A program made the translations under genes and the position numbers. 64,000 bases of DNA from Roseimaritima ulvae (GTDB taxonomy: Bacteria > Planctomycetota > Planctomycetia > Pirellulales > Pirellulaceae): positions 3,699,404-3,763,403 of the forward strand of contig NZ_CP042914.1 in NCBI RefSeq assembly GCF_008065135.1, written 5' to 3'. Within the stretch, counting starts at the first letter, position 1, and the number at the start of each line of letters is the position of its first letter. A model generated the notes under the pieces. It saw only the letters and a program-made list of their open reading frames with translations. It was not told where the DNA came from and did no database searches. Of this stretch, positions 11,492 to 60,815 are shown piece after piece.

Positions 11492-11507
11492 AAAGCCATC
11501 CTCCACC

Positions 11508-11573
11508 CGTAGCCGAACTCGCCAGAGTTTGGACGTTTCCCGGAGCCCCCAAAGCCTGGCGACTTCGGCTACC
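11508..11573. repeat. REP-B pair (one + copy, one - copy) downstream of purM
   Basis: The sequence is cgtagccgaactcgccagagtttggacg ... cctggcgacttcggctacc. Confidence 0.7.
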
Positions 11574-11607
11574 AGCGTGCCAGACGGGGAAAAAACAAAC
11601 GCGGCGG

Positions 11608-14452: not shown

Positions 14453-14558
14453 CGTAGCCAAAGTCGCCAGACTTTGGACTCACACTCGTAGCATGGGCCC
14501 CTGGCCCGTGTGGCTAGTTGCCCCCGTTGTACTTCGGGCCGGGGCCCATGCTATAAGG
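14453..14558. repeat. Mixed REP cluster: one REP-B copy, then two REP-A copies (+ then -)
   Basis: The sequence is cgtagccaaagtcgccagactttggac, then cgtagcatgggcccctggcccgtgtgg, then cgggccggggcccatgctataagg. Confidence 0.7.
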
Positions 14559-17116: not shown

Positions 17117-17202
17117 TTCGGGATGCCGACAGCCAAGCAGCAGCGAGCGGAGATTGAAAAGCAGCGGTTGAGAAACCGTTGGGAGGTTACGGTTGGGGGT
17201 AC

Positions 17203-17258
17203 GCTGGCCGGGGGCCCATGCTACGGAGGCGCGGGCACGGGCCGGGGGCCCATGCTAC
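17203..17258. repeat. Two tandem REP-A copies (- orientation)
   Basis: The sequence is ggccgggggcccatgctacgg ... cacgggccgggggcccatgctac. Confidence 0.7.
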
Positions 17259-17269
17259 TTTTGTTGAGG

Positions 17270-20823: not shown

Positions 20824-20864
20824 CTGACTCTACCGGACGCGTACAAAGATTCCGGTAGAGTCAG
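20824..20864. other. 14-bp perfect inverted repeat (ctgactctaccgga ... tccggtagagtcag) immediately upstream of the microsatellite
   Basis: Read directly from the sequence. No T-run follows, so it is not a classic terminator. Confidence 0.6.
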
Positions 20865-20865
20865 G

Positions 20866-21054
20866 AAATCTCAAATCTCAAATCTCAAATCTCAAATCTC
20901 AAATCTCAGATCTGAGATCTCAGATCTGAGATCTCAGATCTCAGATCTCAGATCTCAGATCTCAGATCTCAGATCTCAGATCTCAGATCTCAGATCTCAA
21001 ATCCCAAATCCCAAATCCCAAATCTCAAATCCCAAATCCCAAATCCCAAATCCC
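20866..21054. repeat. Heptanucleotide microsatellite, about 27 units: (AAATCTC)5, (AGATCTG/AGATCTC)~14, (AAATCCC/AAATCTC)~8
   Basis: It is a perfect 7-bp periodicity over 189 bp. The central block is a run of overlapping BglII-type palindromes (agatct). Confidence 0.9.
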
Positions 21055-21062
21055 TCCAACAA

Positions 21063-21107
21063 CCAAACTCTGGCGAGTTCGGCTACGCCTTACCATTCGG
21101 CTACGCC
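21063..21107. repeat. REP-B copy plus a partial copy (- orientation)
   Basis: The sequence is ccaaactctggcgagttcggctacg ... ccattcggctacgcc. Confidence 0.65.
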
Positions 21108-23886: not shown

Positions 23887-23906
23887 AGTAGCATGGGCCC
23901 CTGGCC

Positions 23907-25437
23907 CTGCTGATTACCCAATTTTTAGTGAACGGATGATTTTGGAGGCCCGAAGGCTTGCCAGGCTAAGGCGAAGTCCATCATTCGGCGAGTTCCACGC
24001 CAGATCGTTTCCATTCCTGGTGGGCCGTCGTGTTTGCGTCCATTGTAGCCACCTAGCTGAGCAAGCACGGGGATGAATTGCGAGAGTTCGGGAGCTGATT
24101 TCGGCGGCTCCGATTCCTTAGCGACTTTCCAAACCGACTTCCATTCAGCGTCGCTGAATACAACATCGCATGGCAACTCAGGACACTCGCGTCCGAGGAA
24201 TGTGATAAACATGATCCGCCATGCAACAACTTTGTAAAACATCAACGCGCGAATCAGCCTGGCTTTGGTTTTCAGCTGGATGTCCTCAACGCGGCATCCC
24301 GATTTGAGTACTCGGAAGAACATTTCGACAGGCCACCGTGCGACGTAGTAGTCAACAATCCGCAATACATCTCGGTAATCGTCAATCGGAAGGGAGCTCA
24401 ATAGCAGCCAGTTCAGGTCGGTTCCATCCTGCGGCCCGTCGACCTCTTGAACGAGCACTACGCTGAGCGTCACTTCCGGAATAGCCGAGCGTCGTGCATG
24501 GGGCGGTTTTATCTTTGTGCGAATGGCACGGATTTCTAGAGTGGCCATTCGGGCGGCACGTTGGGCAGTGGCTGGCAACTCGACTTGCCGCGTTGTAACG
24601 AGATCTGTTTTTGCAACTTCGGATCGGATCTTCTTGTAGCTGTCGCCACCGGCTTCGTCGTCTTTTTCAGGCAAACACCGGACTTGCTTGCTGCGAATCA
24701 CGAAGTCGGCCGGATTATCGTGCTGTTCAGCTTCAACAAAGATGTCGTAGATGTCACCTTCGCGATCCGCTAAAGAAACAACTTGAGTCTCCGGGCACTG
24801 TGAGGCCAATTCACAGCATCGGCGATAGCCTTGAAGCCATCGAAAACTTTCCTTCTCTTCGATCGGATCACTCTTCCGTTGACTGCCCTTTCCTAGGCTG
24901 TCTTCACTACGATCAAAGAACTCCACATCCAGCACGCCCAGACAAAGCTTCTCGGGCGTAAAGGCTACAGAGCTATGGTCATACAATCCCCGTCGGTCTG
25001 CCATGTTTAGGCACTTCACATCGTCGGGGGCGTGACCGTTGAAGTCTAACTCCGTCGTGTCTTGGGCCACGCAAACCACCTTCTGGGACTTGATCCGCTT
25101 GATCGTCGCCCGACGGTGCGCAGCAAGAATTTCCTGGCTATCGGCCTTGGGGTTATCCAAGAACCGGTAAGCCCCTTTCGCAGCACACCATTTATCGCAA
25201 GCCGCATTAATGCTCGCTTGAGGATTGGCGAAGAGGGCCTGGAGAAGTTCTTTCGATCGATCGTTACGGCTTTTATGGCCGAAGTCGATGGTGTCAAATT
25301 CGTGCTCAATCGTGGCTGGTTCAATGGTCATCAATCGCGCTCCTATCGTGTAAAAATAGGTAACACGAGGCGCAAAAAGCGTGCCGAAATCGCGGTGTTT
25401 TTTTGCGATTTCAAAAAAAGAATTGGGTAATCAGCAG
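23907..25437 (-). mobile_element. Intact IS4-family insertion sequence (~1531 bp). It has 16-bp perfect terminal inverted repeats CTGCTGATTACCCAAT and is inserted into a REP-A copy with a ~10-bp target duplication (GCCCCTGGCC).
   Basis: IRL sits at 23907-23922 and IRR (reverse complement) at 25422-25437. The left flank is gtagcatgggcccctggcc and the right flank gcccctggcccgtgt, which together reconstruct one REP-A unit plus a duplicated segment. Confidence 0.8.
23925..25334 (-). CDS. IS4-family DDE transposase (469 aa, apparently intact)
   Basis: The C-terminal YYVARWPVEMFFRVLK gives the IS4-family Y-(2)-R-(3)-E-(6)-K signature. A DDE-type acidic residue context lies upstream. Confidence 0.8.
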   Translation of the reverse strand: MMTIEPATIEHEFDTIDFGHKSRNDRSKELLQALFANPQASINAACDKWCAAKGAYRFLDNPKADSQEILAAHRRATIKRIKSQKVVCVAQDTTELDFNGHAPDDVKCLNMADRRGLYDHSSVAFTPEKLCLGVLDVEFFDRSEDSLGKGSQRKSDPIEEKESFRWLQGYRRCCELASQCPETQVVSLADREGDIYDIFVEAEQHDNPADFVIRSKQVRCLPEKDDEAGGDSYKKIRSEVAKTDLVTTRQVELPATAQRAARMATLEIRAIRTKIKPPHARRSAIPEVTLSVVLVQEVDGPQDGTDLNWLLLSSLPIDDYRDVLRIVDYYVARWPVEMFFRVLKSGCRVEDIQLKTKARLIRALMFYKVVAWRIMFITFLGRECPELPCDVVFSDAEWKSVWKVAKESEPPKSAPELSQFIPVLAQLGGYNGRKHDGPPGMETIWRGTRRMMDFALAWQAFGPPKSSVH

Positions 25438-25575
25438 GCCCCTGGCCCGTGTAAAAAAGACGTCTCTCCTTCTCCAGAACACGGGCCGGGGACCCATGCT
25501 ACGGTTTCCAGAACACGGGCCGGGGACCCATGCTACGGCTTCCAGAACACGGGCCGGGGACCCATGCTACGGGGA
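25438..25575. repeat. REP-A remnant at the IS junction plus three tandem REP-A copies (ccagaacacgggccggggacccatgctacgg x3). The last GTAG supplies the TAG stop of the giant ATPase gene.
   Basis: Read directly. The spacers between copies (ttccagaa) are identical, so this is not a CRISPR array. Confidence 0.75.
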
Positions 25576-28500
25576 ATCGGAGGCGTCTTCTAGTTCATTG
25601 CGGATGCGATCGTAATCCGCCAGCGTGCTTTCAATCAGCTTTTTCAGGTCATCCAGCTGCCGGCCGTTTTCACCCGCTTCCAACATCAATGGCCGCATCC
25701 ATTCTTGCATCAGATGGAACTGGCCGCGGACCAAGTCCAGCATCACCCGCGGCACCTTGTGCTGTACGATCACATTCTGATCCGGTGGGTTGGATGCCTG
25801 GAATTCGCTGATCTGTTGCAGCTGCTTCGACGTTTTGTTGATGGCTTCGGTCAGTTGCTGTCCGGCGTTCGAAAAACTCTGCCGCAGGCCGTCGACGCGT
25901 TCATCCATTCGAACTTCGGCGGAATCGTCGTGCGCTGCCACCGCTCGCGCGATGACTTGTCGGATGGATTCCAGTCCGTCGCGCATCGAACCCAATTGAC
26001 GCATCAGCTGACCGGCCTGGTCGTCAGAATCCAGGCCCGCCATTTTGACACTTTCCACATAGGCGTACTTGATCGCTTCCCAACGCTCTTTCTCTTCCTT
26101 GGTCAGCAACCCATTCAGCTCTTTGAACTTCAGCACGTTGGATTCATTGTCGGTCGTCAACGTCTGAGCGTCTTGTTCGTAGTTGCCGATGATCAAAGCC
26201 TGCAATTCATCCTCGTTCATCACCGCCACCACGCGTTCTGCGATGCGATTCATATTGCGGTAGCTGCCCTGTAATTTAAATGGCGGTTCGGTGCGATAGG
26301 CATCGGCTTGGGCAGCGGAGCGAATGTATTGACGATTGACCTTCAACACACAATCGCGGACCTTCAACAGCTTCTTCAGAACTTCGAACATCTCCCGCAC
26401 TTGGTCGGCCGAGAAACTGCTTTCCATCTCCAGCCCGTCCAGCGAATTGCGTTCGGCGGCGTGAATCAGAGCACGGGCGTCGCTGGGCGAAGCGGAAGCC
26501 AAGGGAGCCAAGACGGTGTTGCTGGTCAGGCAGTTTTCCAAGTAGCTGATTTCGAAGGCGTCGCGTGATTCGCCAATGATCTCGCCCAAGTTGTACACGT
26601 CGGCACGGTTGGACAACATGTCGGGGATCTGGAACCGGGCGCCGCTTTCGGTATACGGATTACCGGCCATCACCACCGCGACACGACGGCCTCGCAGGTC
26701 AAACGTCCGTGTCCGTCCGTTACGAACACCTTCGATTTTCCGGGTCGCGTCGCACAGCGAAATAAACTTCTGCAGGAACTCGGGATGCGTGTGCTGGATG
26801 TCGTCCAAGTACAGCAACACGTTGTCGCCCATCTCCAACGCCAGATTTAATCGTTCGACTTCTTCTCGAGCCGCCGCGTTGGGAGCTTCGTCCGGATCGA
26901 GCGACGTGACGTTATGGCCGATCGCGGGACCGTTGATTTTCATGAATACCAATCCCAATCGATTGGCGATGTATTCCATCAACGTTGTTTTACCGTAACC
27001 GGGTGGACTGATCAGCAGCAACAAGCCCATGCGGTCGGTGCGTTTACCTTCGCCGGTAACGCCGATTTGTTTGGCGAGGTTATCGCCGATCAGCGGCAGG
27101 TAGACTTCATCCAATAGTTGATTGCGGACAAAGCTGGTCAACACCCGCGGGCGGAACTCTTCCAGCCGCATGTCGTCTCGAGCTTCGTCGACCAATCGCA
27201 GCTTGGTGGTTTGCAAACGCTCGTAGCGCGGCACTACTTCGCTGCGGTACCGTCCCACGCGTTCCAGCAGTTCGTGGTACTGGACCGTTAGTTGCCCTTT
27301 TTGAATCCGCGGGTGAGCTCCGGCCAGACCTTCAAGGCGAACGGCGATGTTGACGTCCTGAGCGACAAATTCCTGGTCATCCGCAAACGCGATCCGTATG
27401 GCCAATTCGTCGCGGTAGGCCTCCACCGGATCCAGCGCATCGGTCTGTGGATGAGCGGCCAAAAACGCGTCGGCCCAGTTGCGTCCCAACACAAACGCCT
27501 GCAGCGGATGATCCGCATTCGCTTCGATGGACTGTTCCAACAAGCGACGTCGATCGATGGCGGGCAAGCTGTCGTTGAAAGCGGTTAACAGGGCCGCGAC
27601 ACGCCCGCTGCAGGTAAGGTGATTGGCGGGATCGACCAATTGATCAAACAGGTACGCCGCAATTTCTTCGGCCCCGACTTGCGGGAACAGCTCGGTCCAA
27701 GACAGCGACGAGGCGTCCCGGGGCGTGTGTTCGGCGGTCGGATCGTTCAACAACCGCACCAATCGTTGACGGAATTCGCGAGCCGGTTGAGCGTTGGGAT
27801 AGGCGCGCGCCAGATTAGCGAAACCACCGATCCACTCGGTCAACTGCTCGCGGAGCTGCGGATCGAGCAACCGCAGCCACCACAGCCACGCGGCAGCGCG
27901 GACCGTGGGCCGATGACGCAGCAGGCCGATTTTGTTGTCGATATCAATCAGCGTTGTCAGGATCGCCAACGCGTCGTGATCATGAACGCCCTTGGCATAA
28001 CCTTCGGCAAAGCGCCCGCTGATTTGCTGCCGCAGCCAATTGTCATCCACGGCCGGACGAGCCTGTCGCTCAATCGCTCGCCACTGCTGAAACAAATCCA
28101 CGGCAAGGTATTCGGCTCGGTATAGTTCATTGTTTTCATTCGCCAAGTCCTGCGTCCACAAGTCCTCAGCGGCTTGCAAATCTTCATGCACCAGAGGTTC
28201 AAAAAACTGCGTGCCCGTCAGGTGCAAACAGATCTGTTGGTCGCGCAATACCGTGGTCAGATCCAGCTTTTGCGTGTTGACTGCAAACCGATGCCGCCCC
28301 AGCCGGATCGTATCGCCACCATCTTCGTACAGATCCTGGCGATCCTTCAACTGACGCAACGAATCTTCGCGGATCGTTTTCAGCCGGCTTTGGATATCTT
28401 CCACGCGGACGGCATCATCCAATTCCATCAGATTGGTGACGATGCCGCGGATCTTGTCGACCATCAAGTCGGCGGCGAAATAGGCCAAAATCTCATCCGC

Positions 28501-36587: not shown

Positions 36588-36738
36588 CCGAAGTCGTTCG
36601 ACGGTGGAGGCAGGCCGTTCCCGTCCAATCTCTGGCGCGATCGGCTACGGTGCGCTGCGACCACGCTCTGGTGAGCGTAGCTACGGGGACGCGGTAGTTA
36701 GGATGCGCGGTCCCACGCTCTGGCGAGCGTAGCTACGG
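36584..36738. repeat. REP-B cluster of 4 copies (one degenerate + copy and three - copies)
   Basis: The sequence is gtagccgaagtcgttcgacggtgg ... ctctggcgcgatcggctacgg ... cacgctctggtgagcgtagctacgg ... cacgctctggcgagcgtagctacgg. Confidence 0.7.
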
Positions 36739-40301: not shown

Positions 40302-40416
40302 CATCGTAGCTACGCTCGCCAGAGCGTGGGACCACGCGCCGTCCCCCACCGTCTGGCGACGGTAGCTACGACCCACCGTCTGGCGACGGTAGCTACGAGA
40401 GGGTGGTCGCTACGGC
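40302..40416. repeat. REP-B cluster (one + copy, two - copies and a partial copy). The partial copy supplies the stop codon of the downstream convergent gene.
   Basis: The sequence is gtagctacgctcgccagagcgtggga ... cgtctggcgacggtagctacga (x2) ... cgctacgg. Confidence 0.7.
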
Positions 40417-51030: not shown

Positions 51031-52029
51031 TTGACTCACGAATTGTATCGCCAGGCCGCTCCGCAAAGCGAAGCGTTCAGCAATCTCCGCGATCTGTACA
51101 ATGCGATTACCACCGAAGTCCGCAAGCTGTATGTCGGACAAGACGAATTGTTGCTGGGCACGTTGACCGCCTTGTTCAGCGGCGGACACGTGCTGATCGA
51201 AAGTGTGCCGGGGCTCGGCAAGACGTTGTTCGTCCGCACCTTGGGCCAGATTCTGGGTTGCCAGTTCGGGCGGGTGCAGTTCACGGCCGACTTGATGCCA
51301 TCGGACATCACTGGGGCTCCGGTGTATGACATGAAGGAATCCGAATTCCGCTTCCGTCCCGGCCCGATTTTCACGCAGTTGCTGCTGGCTGACGAAATCA
51401 ACCGTTCGCCGGCCAAAACCCACGCGGCACTGTTGGAAGTGATGCAGGAATATCGCGTCACGGTCGACGGTACCAGTCATCAAGTCCCTCGCCCCTTTCT
51501 GGTGCTGGCAACGCAAAACCCGTTGGAGAGCGAAGGCACGTACAACCTGCCGGAAGCCCAACTGGACCGGTTTATGTTCAAACTGCACGTCGACTATCCG
51601 ACGGCTGAAGAGGAAATGGATGTGCTGCGAATGCACTCCCAGCAACTGGATCTGAACGAACGGTTGCGGGAAGAAGTGCAAACGGTCACCAATCCGGAAA
51701 CGCTGGTCGCGGCGATTGGTCAGTGTGGTGGCGTGCGGATCGAAGACGGCCTGACGGACTACATCAACAAGATCGTTCGCATGACTCGGCAATGGACCGC
51801 CTTCCACATCGGCGCCTCGCCGCGAGCCGGGATCGCGCTGATGCAAGCCGCACGGACCTTGGCCGCGTTCAGCGGTCGCGACTTCGCCACCCCCGACGAC
51901 GTGGTCGAGATCGCTCTACCCGCCCTGCGGCATCGCGTGCAACTGACCGCCGAAGCGGAAGTCGAAGGCCGCGACGTGGACGAAGAATTACGGATGTTGA
52001 TCCGAGGCATCGAAGTCCCCCGCGATTGA
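51031..52029 (+). CDS. MoxR-family AAA+ ATPase
   Basis: It has GHVLIESVPGLGKT (Walker A), LLADEINRSPAKT (Walker B) and a typical ~330-aa length. Confidence 0.85.
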   Translation: MTHELYRQAAPQSEAFSNLRDLYNAITTEVRKLYVGQDELLLGTLTALFSGGHVLIESVPGLGKTLFVRTLGQILGCQFGRVQFTADLMPSDITGAPVYDMKESEFRFRPGPIFTQLLLADEINRSPAKTHAALLEVMQEYRVTVDGTSHQVPRPFLVLATQNPLESEGTYNLPEAQLDRFMFKLHVDYPTAEEEMDVLRMHSQQLDLNERLREEVQTVTNPETLVAAIGQCGGVRIEDGLTDYINKIVRMTRQWTAFHIGASPRAGIALMQAARTLAAFSGRDFATPDDVVEIALPALRHRVQLTAEAEVEGRDVDEELRMLIRGIEVPRD

Positions 52030-52145: not shown

Positions 52146-52896
52146 ACCCTCCTTTTTAAGGGGCGCATCCTACGAGCCGCGGCGTGAACCGCGGCGTTTA
52201 GACGAAGTACGCCGAAGGCGTTATAGCCAATAGCCGGCGGTCGAGCGCAGCGACCACCGCCGAAACAGACGCGACGAAAATCTGGCTCCCCTCTCCCCCA
52301 AGCAAGCTTGGGGTGGTGCAGTGGATATCGGATAGCCAGTTAGCTCTCCCCATCTCTTCGCGTTGGTTTCCGGAGCTTGCTTGGGGGAGAGGGGCTGGGG
52401 GTGGCCTGGTAAAAATGATTGCGTGGTGGTTGTCTAGGCGGTTTAGAAACGTCTGGGCGACACGTGTCCCCCCTCCCCCAAATATTTCGCGTCATGAATC
52501 TGGGTTGATAGAGGACTTAGTGCGCGAAATATTTGGGGGAGGGGGGACCGGAATTCGCTCGCGTACCCACGATAAAGCCAGATTGGTTCGGGGCGACCAC
52601 GACAAAGGGTTACGGATTTTTACCAGGCCACCCCCAGCCCCTCTCCCCCAAAACAAGCCTTTGCAGCGGTGTCGTTTGACCTAAAAAACGAGCGGTAGCG
52701 TTGGAATCAAACCTGTTGTTAGCAGGCTTGTTTTGGGGGAGAGGGGGGCCCGATTTTGCCCGTTTCTTTCCGGTGGTGGCGCTGCGCTGACCACCGGCTA
52801 TTGGCTGAAATTCCCTTCGGGAATAGGGCGGGAATCGTTACCGCGTCACTGTCGACTGACGCGGCTCGCAGGATGCGCCCCTTTTTAAGGAGGGTC
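52146..52896. repeat. Giant nested imperfect palindrome (~750 bp, symmetry centre ~52520). At least four pairs of long inverted repeats share the same centre and carry CCCCTCTCCCCCA/TGGGGGAGAGGGG motifs.
   Basis: The pairs are 52146-52181 with 52860-52896 (accctcctttttaaggggcgcatcctacgagccgcg), 52222-52262 with 52770-52811 (tatagccaatagccggcggtcgagcgcagcgaccacc), 52288-52310 with 52724-52752, and 52377-52416 with 52624-52660 (gcttgcttgggggagaggggctgggggtggcctggtaaaaat). A 26-bp perfect inverted repeat sits at 52466-52491 / 52521-52546. Confidence 0.8.
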
Positions 52897-52899
52897 GAG

Positions 52900-52977
52900 C
52901 CTTAGTTCCAGTTTTGCATTAAGAAAAATGCACTTCGCGAATCCTGCTCTAACAAAAAGTGCAAAACTGGAACTTAG
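52900..52977. repeat. AT-rich 18-bp perfect inverted repeat (cttagttccagttttgca ... tgcaaaactggaacttag) adjoining the giant palindrome
   Basis: Read directly. The local GC content is far below the window average. Confidence 0.7.
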
Positions 52978-53125
52978 CGAGGGGAGGTTTTTATAGTTTT
53001 TGCCGCGGCGCGGTCGCCCTCTCCTCGCTGACGCTCGACTCTCCCAGAGGGAGAGTGAAGTGAATCCGGCATTAATACACTTCACGTTCCGAAGGAGGGT
53101 AAAGAATGATGCCACAAACGCCGCC

Positions 53126-54550
53126 CTACTGCAGCTTTTCCAGATCCGCGCGGCTGTTGGCGTAGTTCTCGTTGAACGCCAAAGCTCGTGGATCAGGGGT
53201 CTGCTTCCAGCGCCGGCAGGCTTCCGCATACAGCTCCGGCCACCAGTTACGGTGTTCGGTTAAGCCTTGGTCGAGGTACTGCTGCCAGTGGCTGAGCACC
53301 TTGGACCAGCATGCATCGCCGTACCGCAGCGCTTCGTTCAGTGACTCATAGCGGGGAACGTACCACCGTCGGCCGATTTGAGCATGCAGCACTTCATCTG
53401 CCCAATCGAAGTCTTGGAACAACGCTGCCAGTGGATCTCCGCTTTCGTGCGCAATTTCGAATTCGTAACGTTTGCCAGTACGCGGCATCAACCCCTGCTC
53501 GATAAAGAACAGCACGCCGTGGCGTTCACGGGCATCCAGCTGGAGGTTCAGGTTGCGTGACCAAGTAAAGTTGATGGGGATCTTCTGCCAGTCTAGCCCC
53601 TGCGAAACGAATCCCACTTCTCCCATCATGGCATGCCGAGCTTCGTCCCACAGCTGGCGTGACATCTCCATATGAAAGGGCCAGGGCTCTTCATCTTTCA
53701 GGTCCACCAAAATGCTGGCCATCATTTCCGGAACGTCGACTTCGCGAATCCGCTTGTAGTACATCATCAACGTTTTGTCGCGAGCCGTATACGACTCGTC
53801 ATACAGAAACGCTTCCGGGTTGACGCCCGCGTTATAGGGATCGCTAAAGCGTTCGTCGCGTTGCGGTTCCGCCTGGTACTGATAGGGCGGATGGTTTTGC
53901 CAGGGATCGGGAATCTCCCCCAGCTCATCCTGCGTGCCATCCAACTGCCCAGCAGCCGCTAGATAGCGATCCAAGTGCTCGAGCCACGGCTGCAAGGAAG
54001 GTTCCTCGTCTTGGTCTACCAGACAAGCCACCGCTTGGTCCCCATAGTCGGCAACCTCTTGAAGCTCAAAAACCATCCATTTGGCAACTCGCACGGTAGG
54101 AGCATCGGCCAAGGGATGTGCGTCACGCTGCAATCGTTGACAAGCTTCCAACACCGCGCGGACCGCATGTTGATAGACCGCGACCAATAGAGCGGGTGTG
54201 GTGGGCGCTGCGATGATTTCGTCCAACCAAGCTTCCAGGGCGGGATGAGGCACTTTGTCTAAACCCAGCGGAGGCTCACGCATCTCGCCGACGCGTTGAC
54301 GAATGAGCGATACGTGTTCGGCAAACAGATAAGCGTGATGCGCAAACGCCGTCTTGAGTTCATAGATCGGTTCGGCGGTCAGTCGGGCGGTCAACGTCTC
54401 GTGCAGACGCTTGAGCACATAGTGCAGCCGTTTCAGCCGCGAGACACTTTCATCCAGCGACCAATTGCTTTCAACGGCTCGCTGCATCGAACAAAGTCCG
54501 GCCAAGGCAGGCAAGCCGCGATAGGTTTGATAGTTTTCCGGAGAAGTCAT
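53126..54550 (-). CDS. Hypothetical ferritin-like (diiron-carboxylate type) protein, 474 aa
   Basis: Two E-x-x-H motifs (WDEARHAMMGE, ADEVLHAQIG) are spaced as in diiron four-helix-bundle proteins. There is no closer family call. Confidence 0.35.
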   Translation of the reverse strand: MTSPENYQTYRGLPALAGLCSMQRAVESNWSLDESVSRLKRLHYVLKRLHETLTARLTAEPIYELKTAFAHHAYLFAEHVSLIRQRVGEMREPPLGLDKVPHPALEAWLDEIIAAPTTPALLVAVYQHAVRAVLEACQRLQRDAHPLADAPTVRVAKWMVFELQEVADYGDQAVACLVDQDEEPSLQPWLEHLDRYLAAAGQLDGTQDELGEIPDPWQNHPPYQYQAEPQRDERFSDPYNAGVNPEAFLYDESYTARDKTLMMYYKRIREVDVPEMMASILVDLKDEEPWPFHMEMSRQLWDEARHAMMGEVGFVSQGLDWQKIPINFTWSRNLNLQLDARERHGVLFFIEQGLMPRTGKRYEFEIAHESGDPLAALFQDFDWADEVLHAQIGRRWYVPRYESLNEALRYGDACWSKVLSHWQQYLDQGLTEHRNWWPELYAEACRRWKQTPDPRALAFNENYANSRADLEKLQ

Positions 54551-54627
54551 CGCCGATACGCTTTTAGAGAGGGACGAATGGATTCTGTCAGCTTAGCGAA
54601 ACGCGGGCCACCGCGGGGGGCAGCGCA

Positions 54628-54724
54628 CGTAGCTACCGTCGCCAGACGGTGGTTTCGCTGTAGCTACCGTCGCCAGACGGTGGTTCCGCTGTAGTCCCCC
54701 CACGCTCTGGCGAGCGTAGCTACG
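54628..54724. repeat. REP-B cluster (two + copies, one - copy)
   Basis: The sequence is cgtagctaccgtcgccagacggtgg x2 ... ccacgctctggcgagcgtagctacg. Confidence 0.7.
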
Positions 54725-56109: not shown

Positions 56110-56174
56110 AAGTTTGACTCCAAAGGGGTAGCAGCAAGCGGATGTCCACGCCCAACAAAACGCAGTGGCCGCTG

Positions 56175-56241
56175 CCGTAGCCGAACTCGCCAGAGTTTGG
56201 ACGTTGGGTTGACCGTCCAAACTCTGGCGAGTTCGGCTACG
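56175..56241. repeat. REP-B inverted pair forming a perfect 28-bp-armed palindrome (REPIN-like doublet)
   Basis: The sequence is ccgtagccgaactcgccagagtttggacg-ttgggttgac-cgtccaaactctggcgagttcggctacg. Confidence 0.8.
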
Positions 56242-56438
56242 TGTGCGCGGTCGTCACGTGTTGTTGGGCGACGGGGTGCACATTGTAACATCGACAGATT
56301 CGTTCCGACCGGGGCAGATGATTTTAGTCTTCTAAACAGCGCCGTTTCGTTAACGCTCAGGGTTTGCCGCCCGCACCGCCGAAACCTACCGATGAACAGT
56401 CTGTTTGCGATCATTGGTTATTTTTGGAGCTGCGTTGG

Positions 56439-57848
56439 ATGACGGTCATCGCCCCGGTTTATTGGCACGAGGGAATGTTTCTCCGCCCCCAGCACTTTCA
56501 GGTCGCCGAACGCAACTTAGAAAGCCAGATCCGCGACAACGTGCAGTGGAATCAGCACTACAGTTGGGGGCTGCGGCGGTTTCAATTGGACGCCGACGCA
56601 CTGGCCAACCATCGCGTGGTGATCTCGGACTTAGCCCTACGCATGCGCGACGGCACGATCGTGTCTTGTCCCGAGATGTGTCAGCTGCCGGAATTGGATC
56701 TGCGTCAAAGCCTTAGCGGGACCCGAGCGTTGACGGTGTTTGCCGCCGTCCCCAAACCCTCGGTGACTCAAAATGCAGACGAAGATCGGGACAGGTATCG
56801 TATCGAAACGCTCGACCTGCAGGACCAAAATACCGGCCAGAACGCTCGTCCGATTCAAGTCCGGCGGCTGAACCTGCGGCTGCTGACCGACGCCGACGAC
56901 CACGCTGGCTTTGCCACTATGCCGCTGATGCGAGTTCGCGGCGCCGATCGCGCAGGCGGAGCGCCGGAACTGGACCGCACCTATATCCCGCCCTTATTGG
57001 CGGTCGACGCTTGGAAGACGCTGGAACAAGAGATCGTGCGGCCCGTGTTCGACCGGATCGGCAAGAAGCTGGAATTGGTTTCCAATCAGGTGATCTCACG
57101 AGGCATCACGTTCGATTCCAGTTCCCAAGGCGACCGTGTCATCTTGGAACAGATGCGGGTTATGAACGAGACGTACGCGGAATTGAGCGTACGAGCGCTG
57201 ATGCCGGGAATGCATCCGATCGACGTGTTCCGCCATCTGTTGAACTTCGTTGGACGGATGGCCGTGTTCACGCCGGCCCGACGCGTCCCGGAGCTGCCCA
57301 AGTACGATCATGACGATCTGGGGCAATGTTTTTGGGCCGCGCGGCGACTGGTCGACGGCGTGCTGGACGCGGTTACCGAACCGGAGTTCTGTGAGCGAGC
57401 TTTTGTTGGCGCAGGGCAGAGGGTGCAGGTAGCGTTGGAGCCGGCGTGGTTGGAACCCGGTCAGCGAATGTTTGTCGCCGTCACATCCAACTTGCCCACC
57501 GAACAAACACGTCAGCTGGTAGAGCGGCGTTTGGACATGAAAATCGGTGCCGGCAGCACGGTCGACGAATTGTATCGGTTGGGACGCGCAGGGTTGCAGT
57601 TCGACCACCAAGACCACCCGCCACGCTGCCTACCGCTGCGACCAGGCCGCGTGTTCTTTGGGATCGATAACTCGCACAGCGAAGACCAATGGGAATCGGT
57701 GCAACGAGAGTTGGCCTTGGCGGTGCGATTTAACGAAAATCTGATCGCCGGCGACGTCCAGGGACAACACGCCATCGGAATCACGGTTGATGGCCATGGG
57801 GCGACGTTGGAGTTTGTGTTGTACGTCGTCCCCCCCTCGGCGATCTAG
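56439..57848 (+). CDS. tssK: Type VI secretion baseplate subunit TssK-like protein (DUF876/VasE family). No other tss genes are present in the window.
   Basis: The N-terminus (VYWHEGMFLRPQHFQ) matches the near-invariant TssK start (W-x-EGMFL-x-PQHFQQ). The internal RLNLRLL...MPLMRV block matches the conserved TssK shoulder motif. The length (~469 aa) is typical. Confidence 0.6.
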   Translation: MTVIAPVYWHEGMFLRPQHFQVAERNLESQIRDNVQWNQHYSWGLRRFQLDADALANHRVVISDLALRMRDGTIVSCPEMCQLPELDLRQSLSGTRALTVFAAVPKPSVTQNADEDRDRYRIETLDLQDQNTGQNARPIQVRRLNLRLLTDADDHAGFATMPLMRVRGADRAGGAPELDRTYIPPLLAVDAWKTLEQEIVRPVFDRIGKKLELVSNQVISRGITFDSSSQGDRVILEQMRVMNETYAELSVRALMPGMHPIDVFRHLLNFVGRMAVFTPARRVPELPKYDHDDLGQCFWAARRLVDGVLDAVTEPEFCERAFVGAGQRVQVALEPAWLEPGQRMFVAVTSNLPTEQTRQLVERRLDMKIGAGSTVDELYRLGRAGLQFDHQDHPPRCLPLRPGRVFFGIDNSHSEDQWESVQRELALAVRFNENLIAGDVQGQHAIGITVDGHGATLEFVLYVVPPSAI

Positions 57849-57896: not shown

Positions 57897-57952
57897 AAAC
57901 GGGAATCCAAACTCTGGCGAGTTCGGCTACGGGGGCGAGTTCGGCTACGGGG
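57897..57952. repeat. REP-B copy plus a partial copy (- orientation)
   Basis: The sequence is ccaaactctggcgagttcggctacgggggcgagttcggctacgggg. Confidence 0.65.
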
Positions 57953-60815
57953 ACGCTTGGACCGTGTAGTTCAGTACGCGGCGGCCATCTTGTTCGGCCG
58001 CTCGCAGCAACAGGGTCTGGCCCAACAGGGAACGACCGTTGGGCAGTGAGAATTCGCGTCGCACCCGCTGGCCAGCGTTCACGCTAACGGTTTGCCGTTG
58101 ATACTGGCGACCGGGCGGAAACAAGCGGCAATCGTAACTCTGACGCTGCTCGGATGAGTTTTCCATTTCCAGTCGCACGACCAAGTTGTCTTGTTCGTCC
58201 AGCCGCGTGGTGATCTGCACCTCCAAACCTTCCGGGCCGACACGCAGTTGCCGATAGACGAGAAACGGATGCGGTCCGGCTTGGGAGAGTCGAAACTGCA
58301 GGGCGATGGTTTCGACGCCCGTTTTAGCGTTGGAGCGGAGCGTGATGGGCACCGGTTGATCCAGAGTTCCCGAGCCGCGGATCTGCCAGGGCACGGGGTA
58401 ACGCGGCAATTCCCAAGCGTCGCCGGCGGACATCAGCATATCGCCTTCGAGCGCATTGGATTGGGGGTTCTTCATCTTCACGGCGACAAACTGCGCACGC
58501 CCCAACAGACTGTCGATGGACGCCCGGTCGAGTTCCACTTCCATCCGGAACTGCGTCATCAGCGGATGCAAGCCGAGGATGAATTTTGGGACCGGACCGG
58601 CTTCGAGCACCTGTCGCGTGACGCCCTGACGATCGACCTTGGCCGCGGCGGTTCGGACGCCCCACACCGATAGTTCTTCGATGTTTTCGCCCAAATAGAT
58701 TTCTTCTTCAGTCGGCTGCGAATTCCACAATACCATCACGCTGCGGTGACCATCGGAGAGCACGATATTGGAACTGCCGTTGGGCAACCGCAGGCTGCCG
58801 ATGCGTTGCAACGTGCCCAACGTGGCGGCGGTGGTTCGCCAGGGCAACAGCATAATGTCGGGCAGGCCATCGGGCTGCAGCAGGCCGGTTTCGGGATTCG
58901 TGGGATCGGACACAAAGGCGGCTTCGACGGCGTGGCCGCGGACGGTGGCCATTCGCAAGACCAGGTCACGGATACGGGTATCGGTGTCGTAGCTAGACTT
59001 GGGCAGCGGATCCAGCAGTAACCAAGTGCGAGTGCTGCCGCTGGACTTTTGCGGGTCCAATTCGATTTCTAGGTAAGCGTCTAGCTCGTCGGCCGTAAAT
59101 GTCTCCGCCTCACTCCGCGTCACGGCTTTCCAAACCCGTTCGCTGCCGGCCGGTTGAGGTTCCAGCCAGGGCCAGGAGAGGACCATATTCAGCGGTTGCC
59201 CGTATCCCTGCAGGCCTCGCTGGATGCTTTCGATGGTTTCTCGCAGTCGAGCCCGGTCGAGGAAGCTGAAGTCGCGTTCGTTGCCCAGTTGCCACCATTG
59301 GACCTTCATCGTCAGACGGCTCATCAGGGTTTCGAGCAGCGGTTGCCAGACGTCTTGATCGCGGAACACATTAACGGCTTGAACTGGTCGTCGAGCGTCG
59401 ATTTCCGGCGCCGTGCCGCTGGGCGGTTGGTTCAGCAAACCCACGACCTGAATGCCGCTTTCCATCAGCCGATTGACCATCCAGGAAAGTTGATCGCCGG
59501 CTTCCAAATCGGCAGCATCGATCCAACAAGGATATTTCAGCCAACCGACGTGGCAGTTGCGGAGCCACTCCGGCAACGCTCGCAAGTCGCCGCGGGGCGC
59601 TCCTTCGGGTAGGGTCCAACCAAACGGTCCGGCTTGGCCCGGCAAGGGTTCGATAACCACAAACGTGGTTTCGGTTTGCAACGCGCTGCGGTCGGCGGCG
59701 ATCAGTTCCGCTGTCATGCGGTAGAACCCTGGCGGCAGGTCCGCCAGTTTCCAATTCGCCAAACCACCGTAGGCCAACAATTGGGAATCATCTTGGTGGG
59801 TGTCGACCGGCGAGATAAAGTCCTCGATCGGCTGCTGGTGGGCATCGAACAGCGTAAAGTGGATGGAGGCGGTTTTGAAACGCAGCCCCATCGCTTCGGC
59901 CGAGATCTCGACCGTATCGCCGCGTGCATAGATTCCCGTAGCCGAGGCACCGCGAACGTGCAGTTGGGGAAATTGATTCAGTTGCAGTTGGTCGAATTGG
60001 ACTTCGCCGCGAATGTCGGCGCCCGGACCGGTCGGCTCCACCCGCACTCGCAAGACCGCTTCGGTACAGCCGGGCGGCGGCGCGATAGCGGGCGTATGCA
60101 CGAGGCTCCAAGACGTTGTACCACCGAGTTTTTCGGTGGCTGTGGTTTTGAGCGGCTGGCCCTGGGCATCGAGGAACACGATTTCGGCCCAACCGCTGTC
60201 GTGTTCCAAACCGTGCGTTTGGATGCGGCTGCTGAGCACATAGCTGTACATCGCACTGACGGGAAATTTGGGACTCTGCAGCAGCGCCCCGCCGCCGTCC
60301 AGCCGCACGCTGAGGTATTGGCTGGAAACCAGGTCGCCCATTGCCGGGGGCAGCCCGGGCATCGCCCCGGCGGTGGCTTGAACAAGACGTGTCCACCGTG
60401 TGGGCAGGCCCGGCAGCCAATTGGGGGTGGCAGCCAGTTTCAGCCGCGTCTGGACCCACCACGGCAGCAGTTTGGCGTCGGCCGCTTTAGCGAACGTTTC
60501 CAACGCGGTTTCGGCGGATTGAATATCAATGGCAACGTATTCGGGATAATTGCGTCCGCTGCGCCGCTGCCAGCCGTCCGGCCAAGTGTCGAAATCGCGG
60601 TCGTCGTGGCGATCGAAGTCCCAACGCTGAACGACCTGTCCGTGCGAGACGCGGGGGGACTGCGCAGGCCGACCGAGCGACGGGGCCGCGGGCGCGGCGG
60701 CATGGGCCCGTGTCAGGCAGCACGCCCAGACCAGCTGGACGGCCAGCAGGATGCCTGCCATAGCCACCACAGGGCAAGTCTTTAGAATAGCGGCGTTCGC
60801 TCGCGTCGGATGCAC
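57945..60815 (-). CDS. Large secreted protein (956 aa) of unknown function, possibly with a glycoside-hydrolase-like TIM-barrel central region
   Basis: It has a signal peptide (AMAGILLAVQLVWACCLTRAHAAAP) and Trp-rich segments. No confident family is recognised. Confidence 0.4.
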   Translation of the reverse strand: MHPTRANAAILKTCPVVAMAGILLAVQLVWACCLTRAHAAAPAAPSLGRPAQSPRVSHGQVVQRWDFDRHDDRDFDTWPDGWQRRSGRNYPEYVAIDIQSAETALETFAKAADAKLLPWWVQTRLKLAATPNWLPGLPTRWTRLVQATAGAMPGLPPAMGDLVSSQYLSVRLDGGGALLQSPKFPVSAMYSYVLSSRIQTHGLEHDSGWAEIVFLDAQGQPLKTTATEKLGGTTSWSLVHTPAIAPPPGCTEAVLRVRVEPTGPGADIRGEVQFDQLQLNQFPQLHVRGASATGIYARGDTVEISAEAMGLRFKTASIHFTLFDAHQQPIEDFISPVDTHQDDSQLLAYGGLANWKLADLPPGFYRMTAELIAADRSALQTETTFVVIEPLPGQAGPFGWTLPEGAPRGDLRALPEWLRNCHVGWLKYPCWIDAADLEAGDQLSWMVNRLMESGIQVVGLLNQPPSGTAPEIDARRPVQAVNVFRDQDVWQPLLETLMSRLTMKVQWWQLGNERDFSFLDRARLRETIESIQRGLQGYGQPLNMVLSWPWLEPQPAGSERVWKAVTRSEAETFTADELDAYLEIELDPQKSSGSTRTWLLLDPLPKSSYDTDTRIRDLVLRMATVRGHAVEAAFVSDPTNPETGLLQPDGLPDIMLLPWRTTAATLGTLQRIGSLRLPNGSSNIVLSDGHRSVMVLWNSQPTEEEIYLGENIEELSVWGVRTAAAKVDRQGVTRQVLEAGPVPKFILGLHPLMTQFRMEVELDRASIDSLLGRAQFVAVKMKNPQSNALEGDMLMSAGDAWELPRYPVPWQIRGSGTLDQPVPITLRSNAKTGVETIALQFRLSQAGPHPFLVYRQLRVGPEGLEVQITTRLDEQDNLVVRLEMENSSEQRQSYDCRLFPPGRQYQRQTVSVNAGQRVRREFSLPNGRSLLGQTLLLRAAEQDGRRVLNYTVQASP

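Follow-up and report, generated by a model that had tools for sequence, protein, structure and literature searches.

BoxC of Escherichia coli, which later descriptions named first the PIT element and afterwards the intrastrand-triplex motif TM_ECO, has the consensus CCCTCNCCC N3-6 GGGNGAGGG N3 GGGNGAGGG; 3610 occurrences have been recorded in 262 proteobacterial genomes, always intergenic and sometimes as inverted pairs, with no function assigned to them (PMC4666352). Loci carrying TM_ECO in E. coli were found by Holder et al. 2015 to be rearranged more often than control loci (PMC4666352). Repetitive extragenic palindromic (REP) sequences form another well-described group: as REP doublets forming hairpins (REPINs) or bacterial interspersed mosaic elements (BIMEs) they make hairpins of ~80-110 nt from two inverted short arms and a spacer, sit in intergenic DNA at the 3′ ends of genes, assemble into mosaic clusters and maintain their stems by compensatory change (PMC3116915, PMC2817692, PMC3733652). 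A GTAG or CGTC tetranucleotide tag marks one end of each REP (PMC3733652), and REP doublets and clusters are mobilised by REP-associated tyrosine transposases, RAYTs (PMC3116915, PMC2817692, PMC3733652). Bacterial MITEs (miniature inverted-repeat transposable elements) such as Correia, ERIC and RUP are likewise small and non-coding, with terminal inverted repeats, long stem-loops and a tendency to nest (PMC3184786). Here we describe a palindromic composite of ~750 bp from Roseimaritima ulvae, at positions 52146-52895 of a 64-kb stretch of contig NZ_CP042914.1 (the window, whose numbering is used throughout), which lies between two convergent genes, encoding a MoxR-type AAA ATPase and a DUF455-family protein, and shares traits with each of these systems.

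Three stem-loop units, designated A, B and C, make up the composite and are set inside a diverged inverted duplication, in the order x-A-y-[centre with B]-y′-C-x′ (Table 1). We consider it probable that the whole region is a non-coding, DNA-level compound palindromic repeat assembled from units of a BoxC-like family. Sequence comparison places the unit type in a family of G5/C5-tract palindromes that occurs in Planctomycetes, always just 3′ of a gene, and in Acidobacteriota, as multi-copy pairs; the alignments further indicate that the stems are kept by Watson-Crick compensation.

Architecture of the composite

A sequence-only reading of the stretch had proposed an imperfect nested palindrome of ~750 bp with a single centre of symmetry, and this palindrome is real: the interval 52146-52895 holds six collinear pairs of inverted repeats, whose centres all fall within 52507-52520.5. 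The finer features named in that reading are there too, namely a 26-bp perfect inverted repeat (pair I3), local GC-rich hairpins, two of them perfect and 21 bp and 23 bp long, and an AT-rich 18-bp hairpin with arms at 52901-52918 and 52960-52977, which adjoins the composite from outside and has no second copy in the window. The repeated blocks in the arms resolve into one 14-mer, CCCCTCTCCCCCAA, which occurs six times with at most one mismatch, on alternating strands and always within the composite, against 0.02 occurrences expected per 64-kb window.

Each unit is bordered by CCCCYCTCCCCCAA on the left and by its reverse complement, TTGGGGGAGRGGGG, on the right. The gap between the two 14-mers (79 nt in A, 51 nt in B and 81 nt in C) holds a stem of 7-10 bp and a loop of 31-65 nt. 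The inner stems differ among the three units, yet each is perfectly self-complementary, and the stem of C is compensated on both sides relative to that of A. Covariance model R1 scores unit A at 36 bits (E 3e-7) and unit C at 31-32 bits. Read along one strand, the blocks form the array C-G-C-G-C-G, in which any C-block is complementary to any G-block; this interchangeability accounts both for the nested pairs C1-G3, G1-C3 and C2-G2 around one centre and for the extra pairs I11-I14 found in the repeat scan. Beyond the pairing of blocks, the flanks x/x′ and y/y′ contribute genuine long-range symmetry, extension y and the right arm of unit A together making up the 36-nt perfect arm I1.

Aligned with the reverse complement of the right half, the left half is collinear throughout, with 267 of 469 alignment columns identical. 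Conservation between the halves is highly uneven: the motif segments are perfect, whereas hardly any alignment is possible for the loops of A and C or for the central spacers, and perfect complementarity is confined to segments of 21-36 bp. The outer arms x and x′ align with 125 matches, 18 mismatches and 33 gap columns, which amounts to 87% identity in aligned columns and 71% with gaps counted. They carry local hairpins at equivalent positions, with stems that are different yet compensated; the hairpin CCGGCGGT...ACCGCCG of x and its twin CCGGTGGT...ACCACCGG, for example, are related by a compensatory change from C-G to T-A. A separate peculiarity of these arms is that TTTTTAA stands on the + strand at both outer ends (52153-52159 and 52882-52888), inside arms that are otherwise inverted; this end-loop, not inverted with its arm, may be a flipped hairpin loop.

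The region is predicted to fold with z-scores of -24 (+ strand) and -19 (- strand) as RNA and of -25.6 as DNA. Among 244 sliding segments of 780 nt (mean -304 kcal/mol, sd 25), the extremes, -406 and -395 kcal/mol, belong to the two segments overlapping the region, and the G+C content of both is lower than average. That a palindrome of this size should persist in a cell had been called unusual, which overstates the case: no perfect arm is longer than 36 bp, and the spacers measure 31-199 nt. Interrupted, imperfect palindromes of such dimensions are tolerated by bacteria, according to the literature on SbcCD and long palindromes.

The absence of any credible open reading frame (ORF) across the region, also proposed from the letters, is borne out. 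The longest ORF, 52313-52684 (123 aa), has no Pfam match and no homologue among 5.8 billion proteins, the six small ORFs of the region likewise have neither Pfam match nor homologue, and each ORF of one arm is unrelated to its mirror image in the other. Rfam yielded nothing at gathering threshold across the whole window and, at permissive E-values, only generic microRNA-hairpin noise in the region. Scans for promoters and terminators gave no signal above shuffled expectation, and a search in distant blastn mode against 72,556 plasmids and 50,697 phage records gave no similarity. Several other candidates were rejected. GC skew shows no shift at the locus that would mark a replication origin or terminus; the G-tracts of 5, 4, 5 and 2, on inspection of the sequence, give no canonical four-tract G-quadruplex motif; and an upstream motif, GGACGTGAAATGT, common to the related locus L011 (see below), occurs at a frequency equal to chance.

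Table 1. The composite, its inverted-repeat pairs and its flanking genes, in window coordinates.
Feature	Coordinates	Strand	Length or stem	Description
MoxR-type AAA ATPase gene	51031..52029	+		left flank; last gene of the RDD/SpoIIM/DUF4129/MoxR cluster
Outer left arm x	52146..52287			inverted copy of 52747-52895; own small local hairpins; pairs I2, I9, I7
Hairpin unit A	52288..52394			CCCCTCTCCCCCAA + GCAAGCT stem, 65-nt loop, AGCTTGC + TTGGGGGAGAGGGG
Extension y	52395..52416			CTGGGGGTGGCCTGGTAAAAAT; starts with a truncated second G-block
Centre-left spacer	52417..52465			weakly complementary to 52549-52615
Hairpin unit B (central)	52466..52548			GT + CCCCCCTCCCCCAA + ATATTTCGCG stem, 31-nt loop, inverted copy
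Centre-right spacer	52549..52615			from the half-vs-half alignment
Extension y′	52616..52637			exact reverse complement of 52395-52416
Hairpin unit C	52638..52746			CCCCTCTCCCCCAA + AACAAGCCT stem, 63-nt loop, inverted copy
Outer right arm x′	52747..52895			diverged inverted copy of x
Pair I2	52146-52181 / 52860-52895		36 nt	89% complementary
Pair I9	52225-52242 / 52789-52806		18 nt	94% complementary
Pair I7	52244-52271 / 52761-52788		28 nt	71% complementary
Pair I4	52277-52301 / 52733-52757		25 nt	92% complementary
Pair I1	52381-52416 / 52616-52651		36 nt	100% complementary
Pair I3	52466-52491 / 52523-52548		26 nt	100% complementary
Local hairpin I6 (unit A arms)	52288-52308 / 52374-52394		21 bp	100% complementary
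Local hairpin I5 (unit C arms)	52638-52660 / 52724-52746		23 bp	100% complementary
AT-rich hairpin I10	52901..52977		18-nt stem, 41-nt loop	94%; adjoins the composite, outside it
DUF455-family gene	53126..54550	-		right flank; convergent with MoxR

Related units in Planctomycetes and Acidobacteriota

A scan of genomes, one per species, with the pattern CCCCYCTCCCCCAA-N51-81-TTGGGGGAGRGGGG returned 28 loci, four of them in Planctomycetes and most of the others in metagenome-assembled genomes (MAGs) of Acidobacteriota or Terriglobia, where an Acidobacteriota MAG holds up to eight copies (eight in one, five in another); a scan of metagenomes added three more loci. No record of R. ulvae, not even the locus in the window, was among the 28, and the species apparently falls outside the coverage of the genome scan. 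A homologue of unit B, 82% identical to it over 100 nt, lies at an unrelated locus (L011) of Roseimaritima sp. EA21-05 and shares its right arm with a second hairpin. Units of the B type measure 79-81 nt, a length that is partly conditioned by the search range of 51-81 nt between motifs, and their inner stems often read ...TTCGCG / CGCGAA.... When the seven Planctomycete B-type units are aligned, 95.4% of cells are paired, as against at most 62% in slid-partner controls; eight of the 25 pairs change on both sides, and G·U occurs once in 175 cells. The loops show no conservation to speak of (no local score exceeds 9 out of 31). A covariance model made from the B-type units finds A, B and C in the window, its other matches there being generic hairpins, REP doublets included. 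All six Planctomycete units or composites are situated 16-140 nt 3′ of a stop codon.

Compound forms recur outside R. ulvae. A metagenome contig (L037, 1075-1294) carries a smaller nested composite in which two units lie within a perfect 26-nt pair of BoxC blocks, and L038 is an intermediate, in which a complete third block, CCGGGGGTGAGGGGG, comes after a B-type unit. In Acidobacteriota the units are inverted pairs of a three-block element, CCCTCGCCCCC-TT-GGGGGAGAGGGG-CCG-GGGGTGAGGG, whose loops are homologous among copies within one genome. These BoxC-like pairs (L006-L033) resemble the R. ulvae units in their identical 14-mer borders, in a hairpin geometry with a 30-60-nt loop and in their nesting within further inverted repeats, and identity with the window extends to as many as 23 nt: the 23-mer TTGGGGGAGAGGGGCTGGGGGTG recurs unchanged at the Terriglobia MAG locus L018, within its BoxC-like element. 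They differ in that all three blocks are retained, in their multi-copy state with homologous loops and, in one MAG, in the placement of the core inside a TA-bounded 210-bp element; the R. ulvae units, in contrast, have inner stems and loops that are unrelated.

Two of the Acidobacteriota elements have features of their own. In MAG MFD05580.bin.2.50 (L013 3880-4090, L014, L019 and L025) an element of ~210 bp with a BoxC-like inverted pair as its core is present in four near-identical copies; it ends in TATTGAG... and ...CAGTCAGTA, and there may be TA target duplications, as in a MITE. In the Terriglobia MAG SMAG_U15150 (L026 2415-2606) the loop of a BoxC-like inverted pair is filled by a tandem repeat of ~21 nt, CTCGAATCCTGCAACTCATCT, and loops of BoxC-like elements can therefore absorb extra sequence.

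Affinity to BoxC and competing explanations

The BoxC pair between hrpB and mrcB of E. coli reads C, G1, G2, spacer, C2′, C1′, G′, and within ~85 bp forms local hairpins as well as long-range pairs that nest. The composite has the same blocks (CCCTCTCCC, GGGAGAGGG and GGGTG...) and the same order, with a C-block, G-block 1, G-block 2, a spacer and the mirror image of all of these in its core, 52288-52746 (C, G1, G2 ... C2′, C1′, G′). It is also intergenic, here between convergent genes, and forms inverted pairs with nested alternative pairings; in both cases the blocks are strongly conserved, the flanks are variable and there is an association with rearranged loci. The C-stem CCCTCNCCC and the first G-stem GGGNGAGGG of TM_ECO are represented by CCCCTCTCCCCC + GGGGGAGAGGGG in A and C and by CCCCCCTCCCCC + GGGGGAGGGGGG in B, giving six blocks. 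The three-block element of Acidobacteriota fits the published consensus except that its G-runs are one base longer, and a relaxed TM_ECO pattern (loops of 2-8 and 3-6 nt) matches 20 Acidobacteriota loci, not the window.

The composite departs from BoxC in carrying a third unit in its spacer, in a first loop enlarged from 3-6 nt to ~80 nt, in G and C runs of 5-6 rather than 3-4, in a size about ten times that of the E. coli pair and in its Planctomycete host, TM_ECO being listed for Proteobacteria only (PMC4666352). About six base triplets are possible, so that the triplex-forming design is lost. Of the second G-block, GGGAGAGGGGCTGGGGG occurs twice, at 52385 (+) and 52647 (-), and continues TGGCC instead of TGAGGG.

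Several points count against the favoured explanation or limit it and should be set beside these likenesses. Neither strand of the window contains a match to the strict TM_ECO consensus. The first loop, 3-6 nt in the consensus, spans 51-81 nt in the window units and holds a variable stem of its own, and the second G-stem is truncated (GGGGGTGgcc) in A and C and absent from B. The blocks are short and G/C-rich, and convergence of G/C-tract palindromes might produce the same likeness as homology with BoxC. Within the 64-kb window the unit family occupies a single locus and the arm segments x and y have no further copy, while the outer end AAGGGGCGCATCCTRCGAGCCGCG has 0 matches in JGI metagenomes. 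The difference of five genes between R. ulvae and EA21-05 at this locus, described below, could be a deletion in the former or an insertion in the latter. Finally, PIT elements of E. coli showed neither terminator nor promoter activity (PMC4666352), which makes a transcriptional role of the composite speculative.

From the 23-nt identity and the order of the blocks we infer descent from a BoxC-like ancestor. Because the consensus is unmatched, the first loop is long and the second G-block is truncated or missing, the composite is filed as a variant working in the manner of a BoxC inverted pair and not as a member of BoxC; it is an enlarged form of a known bacterial repeat, not a new kind of element.

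With REPINs and BIMEs the units share the traits listed at the outset, from hairpin size and the layout of two inverted arms to the position at gene 3′ ends, mosaic clustering and stems maintained by compensatory change; the B-type units, at 79-81 nt and with a 25-bp stem, have the length (~70-110 nt) and the compensated stems of a REPIN-type doublet. The arms, however, are not small hairpins themselves, as they are in REPINs, and the GTAG/CGTC tag is absent from A, B and C, whose flanking bases are GTGT, GGCT, CCAG and similar.

The window also contains palindromic repeats of its own. A GTAG-tagged REP family (~CGTAGCCGAACTCGCCAGAGTTTGGAC), abundant and distinct from the units, is found at 26-63, 11505-11576, 21062-21099, 36660-36737, 40304-40397, 54629-54724, 56174-56243 and 57906-57957, and forms REPIN-like inverted doublets at 11505-11576 and 56174-56243. 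A second palindromic family, ACACGGGCCGGGGGCCCATGCTACGG, present at 1857-1970, 14487-14553, 17197-17266, 23887-23919 and 25475-25578, often has tandem copies 34-36 nt apart and also has a GTAG-type end. A long array of 7-nt tandem repeats at 20840-21084 drifts from ATCTCAA through ATCTCAG to ATCCCAA, with a REP copy directly adjoining.

Among the three explanations offered by the sequence-only reading, a head-to-head pair of MITE-like elements came nearest, in that the two halves are collinear inverted copies built on hairpins of a repeat family. Taken literally, as classical MITEs in head-to-head orientation or as nested MITE insertions, mobilised in trans by a transposase that recognises terminal inverted repeats, it would account for the terminal inverted repeats that the composite has at every level, and it gains from the ~210-bp TA-bounded element with a BoxC-like core, in four near-identical copies in one Acidobacteriota MAG, and from the homologous loops among copies in another. 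The hallmarks of MITEs were nevertheless not found. No target-site duplication is present at 52146/52895 (...CTTCCTTC to the left of the element, CGAGCCTT... to its right), around A, B and C or at the other Planctomycete units; the composite has no subterminal sequence conserved across the family and no parent insertion sequence; no transposase gene lies nearby; and no second copy of an arm was detected in the window, in plasmids or phages or, for the outer end, in metagenomes. Inner stems that differ and are nonetheless self-complementary are unexpected for terminal repeats derived from one parent element, and no alignment is possible between the loops of A and C. On all these grounds a MITE pair is unlikely. 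The second proposal, the remnant of a palindromic amplification, fares better in one part than in the other. A one-off inverted duplication of unique local sequence, through palindromic amplification or template switching and unrelated to any repeat family, agrees with halves that are collinear over ~375 nt, segments without the G/C-tract motif included, and with arm segments x and y that are found nowhere else in the window nor, for the outer end, in JGI metagenomes. Only the words "unrelated to a family" separate it from the explanation that we favour, of which an inverted duplication is itself a part, and it is these words that fail: divergence is uneven, with segments of 21-36 bp at 100% beside others that cannot be aligned; the perfect segments are exactly those that bear the family motif; another Roseimaritima carries a homologue of unit B at an unrelated locus; and both L037 and E. 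coli show this design again. A duplication independent of the family is thus distinctly unlikely.

A role at the level of RNA, either as a long structured non-coding RNA, the third of the earlier proposals, or as stem-loops in the 3′ untranslated regions of both convergent genes, is suggested by the extremely stable predicted folding, by the position of all Planctomycete units shortly 3′ of stop codons and by the same TTTTTAA loop on the + strand at both outer ends. We regard it as very unlikely. Rfam gives generic hairpin matches only and no family, folding is about as good for one strand as for the other, functional RNAs do not typically contain perfect helices of 21-36 bp, the loops are not conserved, and promoter and terminator signals do not rise above shuffled expectation. 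There is almost no G·U in the family, and the mismatches of the outer arms show no G·U bias. Covariation that is almost purely Watson-Crick argues for a palindrome that is maintained as DNA rather than as RNA, as do the equivalence of the two strands and outer-arm mismatches that are mostly of the transversion type and without strand bias. A chimeric hairpin read or a similar artefact of assembly would fit with short-read contigs that break nearby, L039 at 53058 and L034 84 nt past MoxR; it is scarcely credible all the same, since a true artefactual hairpin copies its flank exactly, whereas these arms have diverged, with indels and different loops. In addition, the convergent order of MoxR and DUF455 genes is the same in an independent genome, related architectures occur in unrelated assemblies, and an independent short-read contig matches 53058-54723 exactly.

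The flanking genes and the origin of the composite

The MoxR protein has the Pfam domains AAA_3 (6e-62) and AAA_lid_2 and is 99% identical to its counterpart in EA21-05 and 92% identical to that of R. sediminicola. In every relative whose contig runs past MoxR, nucleotide-level synteny ends at the stop codon of this gene. The two genes are likewise convergent in EA21-05 but lie 6.6 kb apart, with five genes between them (an Rhs-core ORF, two small ORFs, a PSCyt/PSD gene and an HXXSHH gene). The corresponding interval of R. ulvae, 1096 bp including the composite, contains no detectable remnant of these five genes, and the palindrome is absent from both junctions of the five-gene stretch in EA21-05; in other relatives the neighbours of MoxR differ again. 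A DUF58 gene, expected after MoxR by the sequence-only reading, is not part of the picture: the cluster ends at MoxR in all fetched relatives with a continuing contig, the next gene is never DUF58, and none of the five genes of the closest relative is one.

The neighbourhood has further features. In EA21-05 (L040 11363-17966 = L001 7000-12999) the product of the first gene after MoxR, 447 aa long, contains an RHS repeat-associated core domain (TIGR03696, 5e-15), and this gene together with the two small ORFs behind it looks like an orphan toxin/immunity module in a variable slot. The product of the R. ulvae DUF455-family gene (474 aa) is 100% identical to a Roseimaritima ulvae protein that its source annotates as DUF455 family. 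Two small perfect hairpins, ACTCTCCC-AGA-GGGAGAGT and GTGAAGTG...CACTTCAC, lie at 53038-53086 in the 3′ region of this gene, and an independent short-read contig (Logan ERR3330933), identical to 53058-54723 of the window, ends at one side in these hairpins, at 53058, and at the other in a REP copy, at 54723. At a distance of ~3.5 kb from the composite, past a sulfatase gene, 56364-57848 is occupied by a gene of type VI secretion (VasE/TssK family, Pfam 1.6e-76).

We posit that the units are selfish or near-neutral repeats that would settle in 3′ intergenic space. Their stem complementarity could be kept at the DNA level in one of two ways: (i) recognition or copying acts on the hairpin or cruciform form, or (ii) the arms correct each other. 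The composite would then have grown in place, by inverted duplication around unit B, at a locus that may be prone to recombination and that would mark the site where the five genes of the closest relative are missing. Should the composite also act on the two convergent transcripts, for instance as a 3′ stem-loop barrier, this would be a secondary matter; such a role is speculative, because PIT elements of E. coli lacked terminator activity.

A broader proposal, which we consider doubtful, would join the Planctomycete units, the Acidobacteriota pairs and E. coli BoxC into one cross-phylum superfamily of structure-recognised mobile DNA, defined by a fixed 14-mer, an inner stem that covaries freely and a 31-33-nt loop. 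Its members would be copied as DNA hairpins by some enzyme, and compound arrays would be in-place expansions and hotspots of deletion or rearrangement. If this were true, it would supply a mechanism for BoxC, an orphan repeat for 30 years.

Loci of this kind break short-read assemblies and run the risk of being mis-annotated as small ORFs, and the composite illustrates how an apparent giant palindrome can emerge from a short array of hairpin units with a common terminal motif. Its position coincides with a difference in gene content between two Roseimaritima genomes, which fits the published link of such motifs to local genome instability. Strict Watson-Crick covariation offers an experimental handle on the recognition of DNA hairpins, and the reach of BoxC-type repeats, earlier catalogued mainly in Proteobacteria and Cyanobacteria, now appears to include Planctomycetota and Acidobacteriota.

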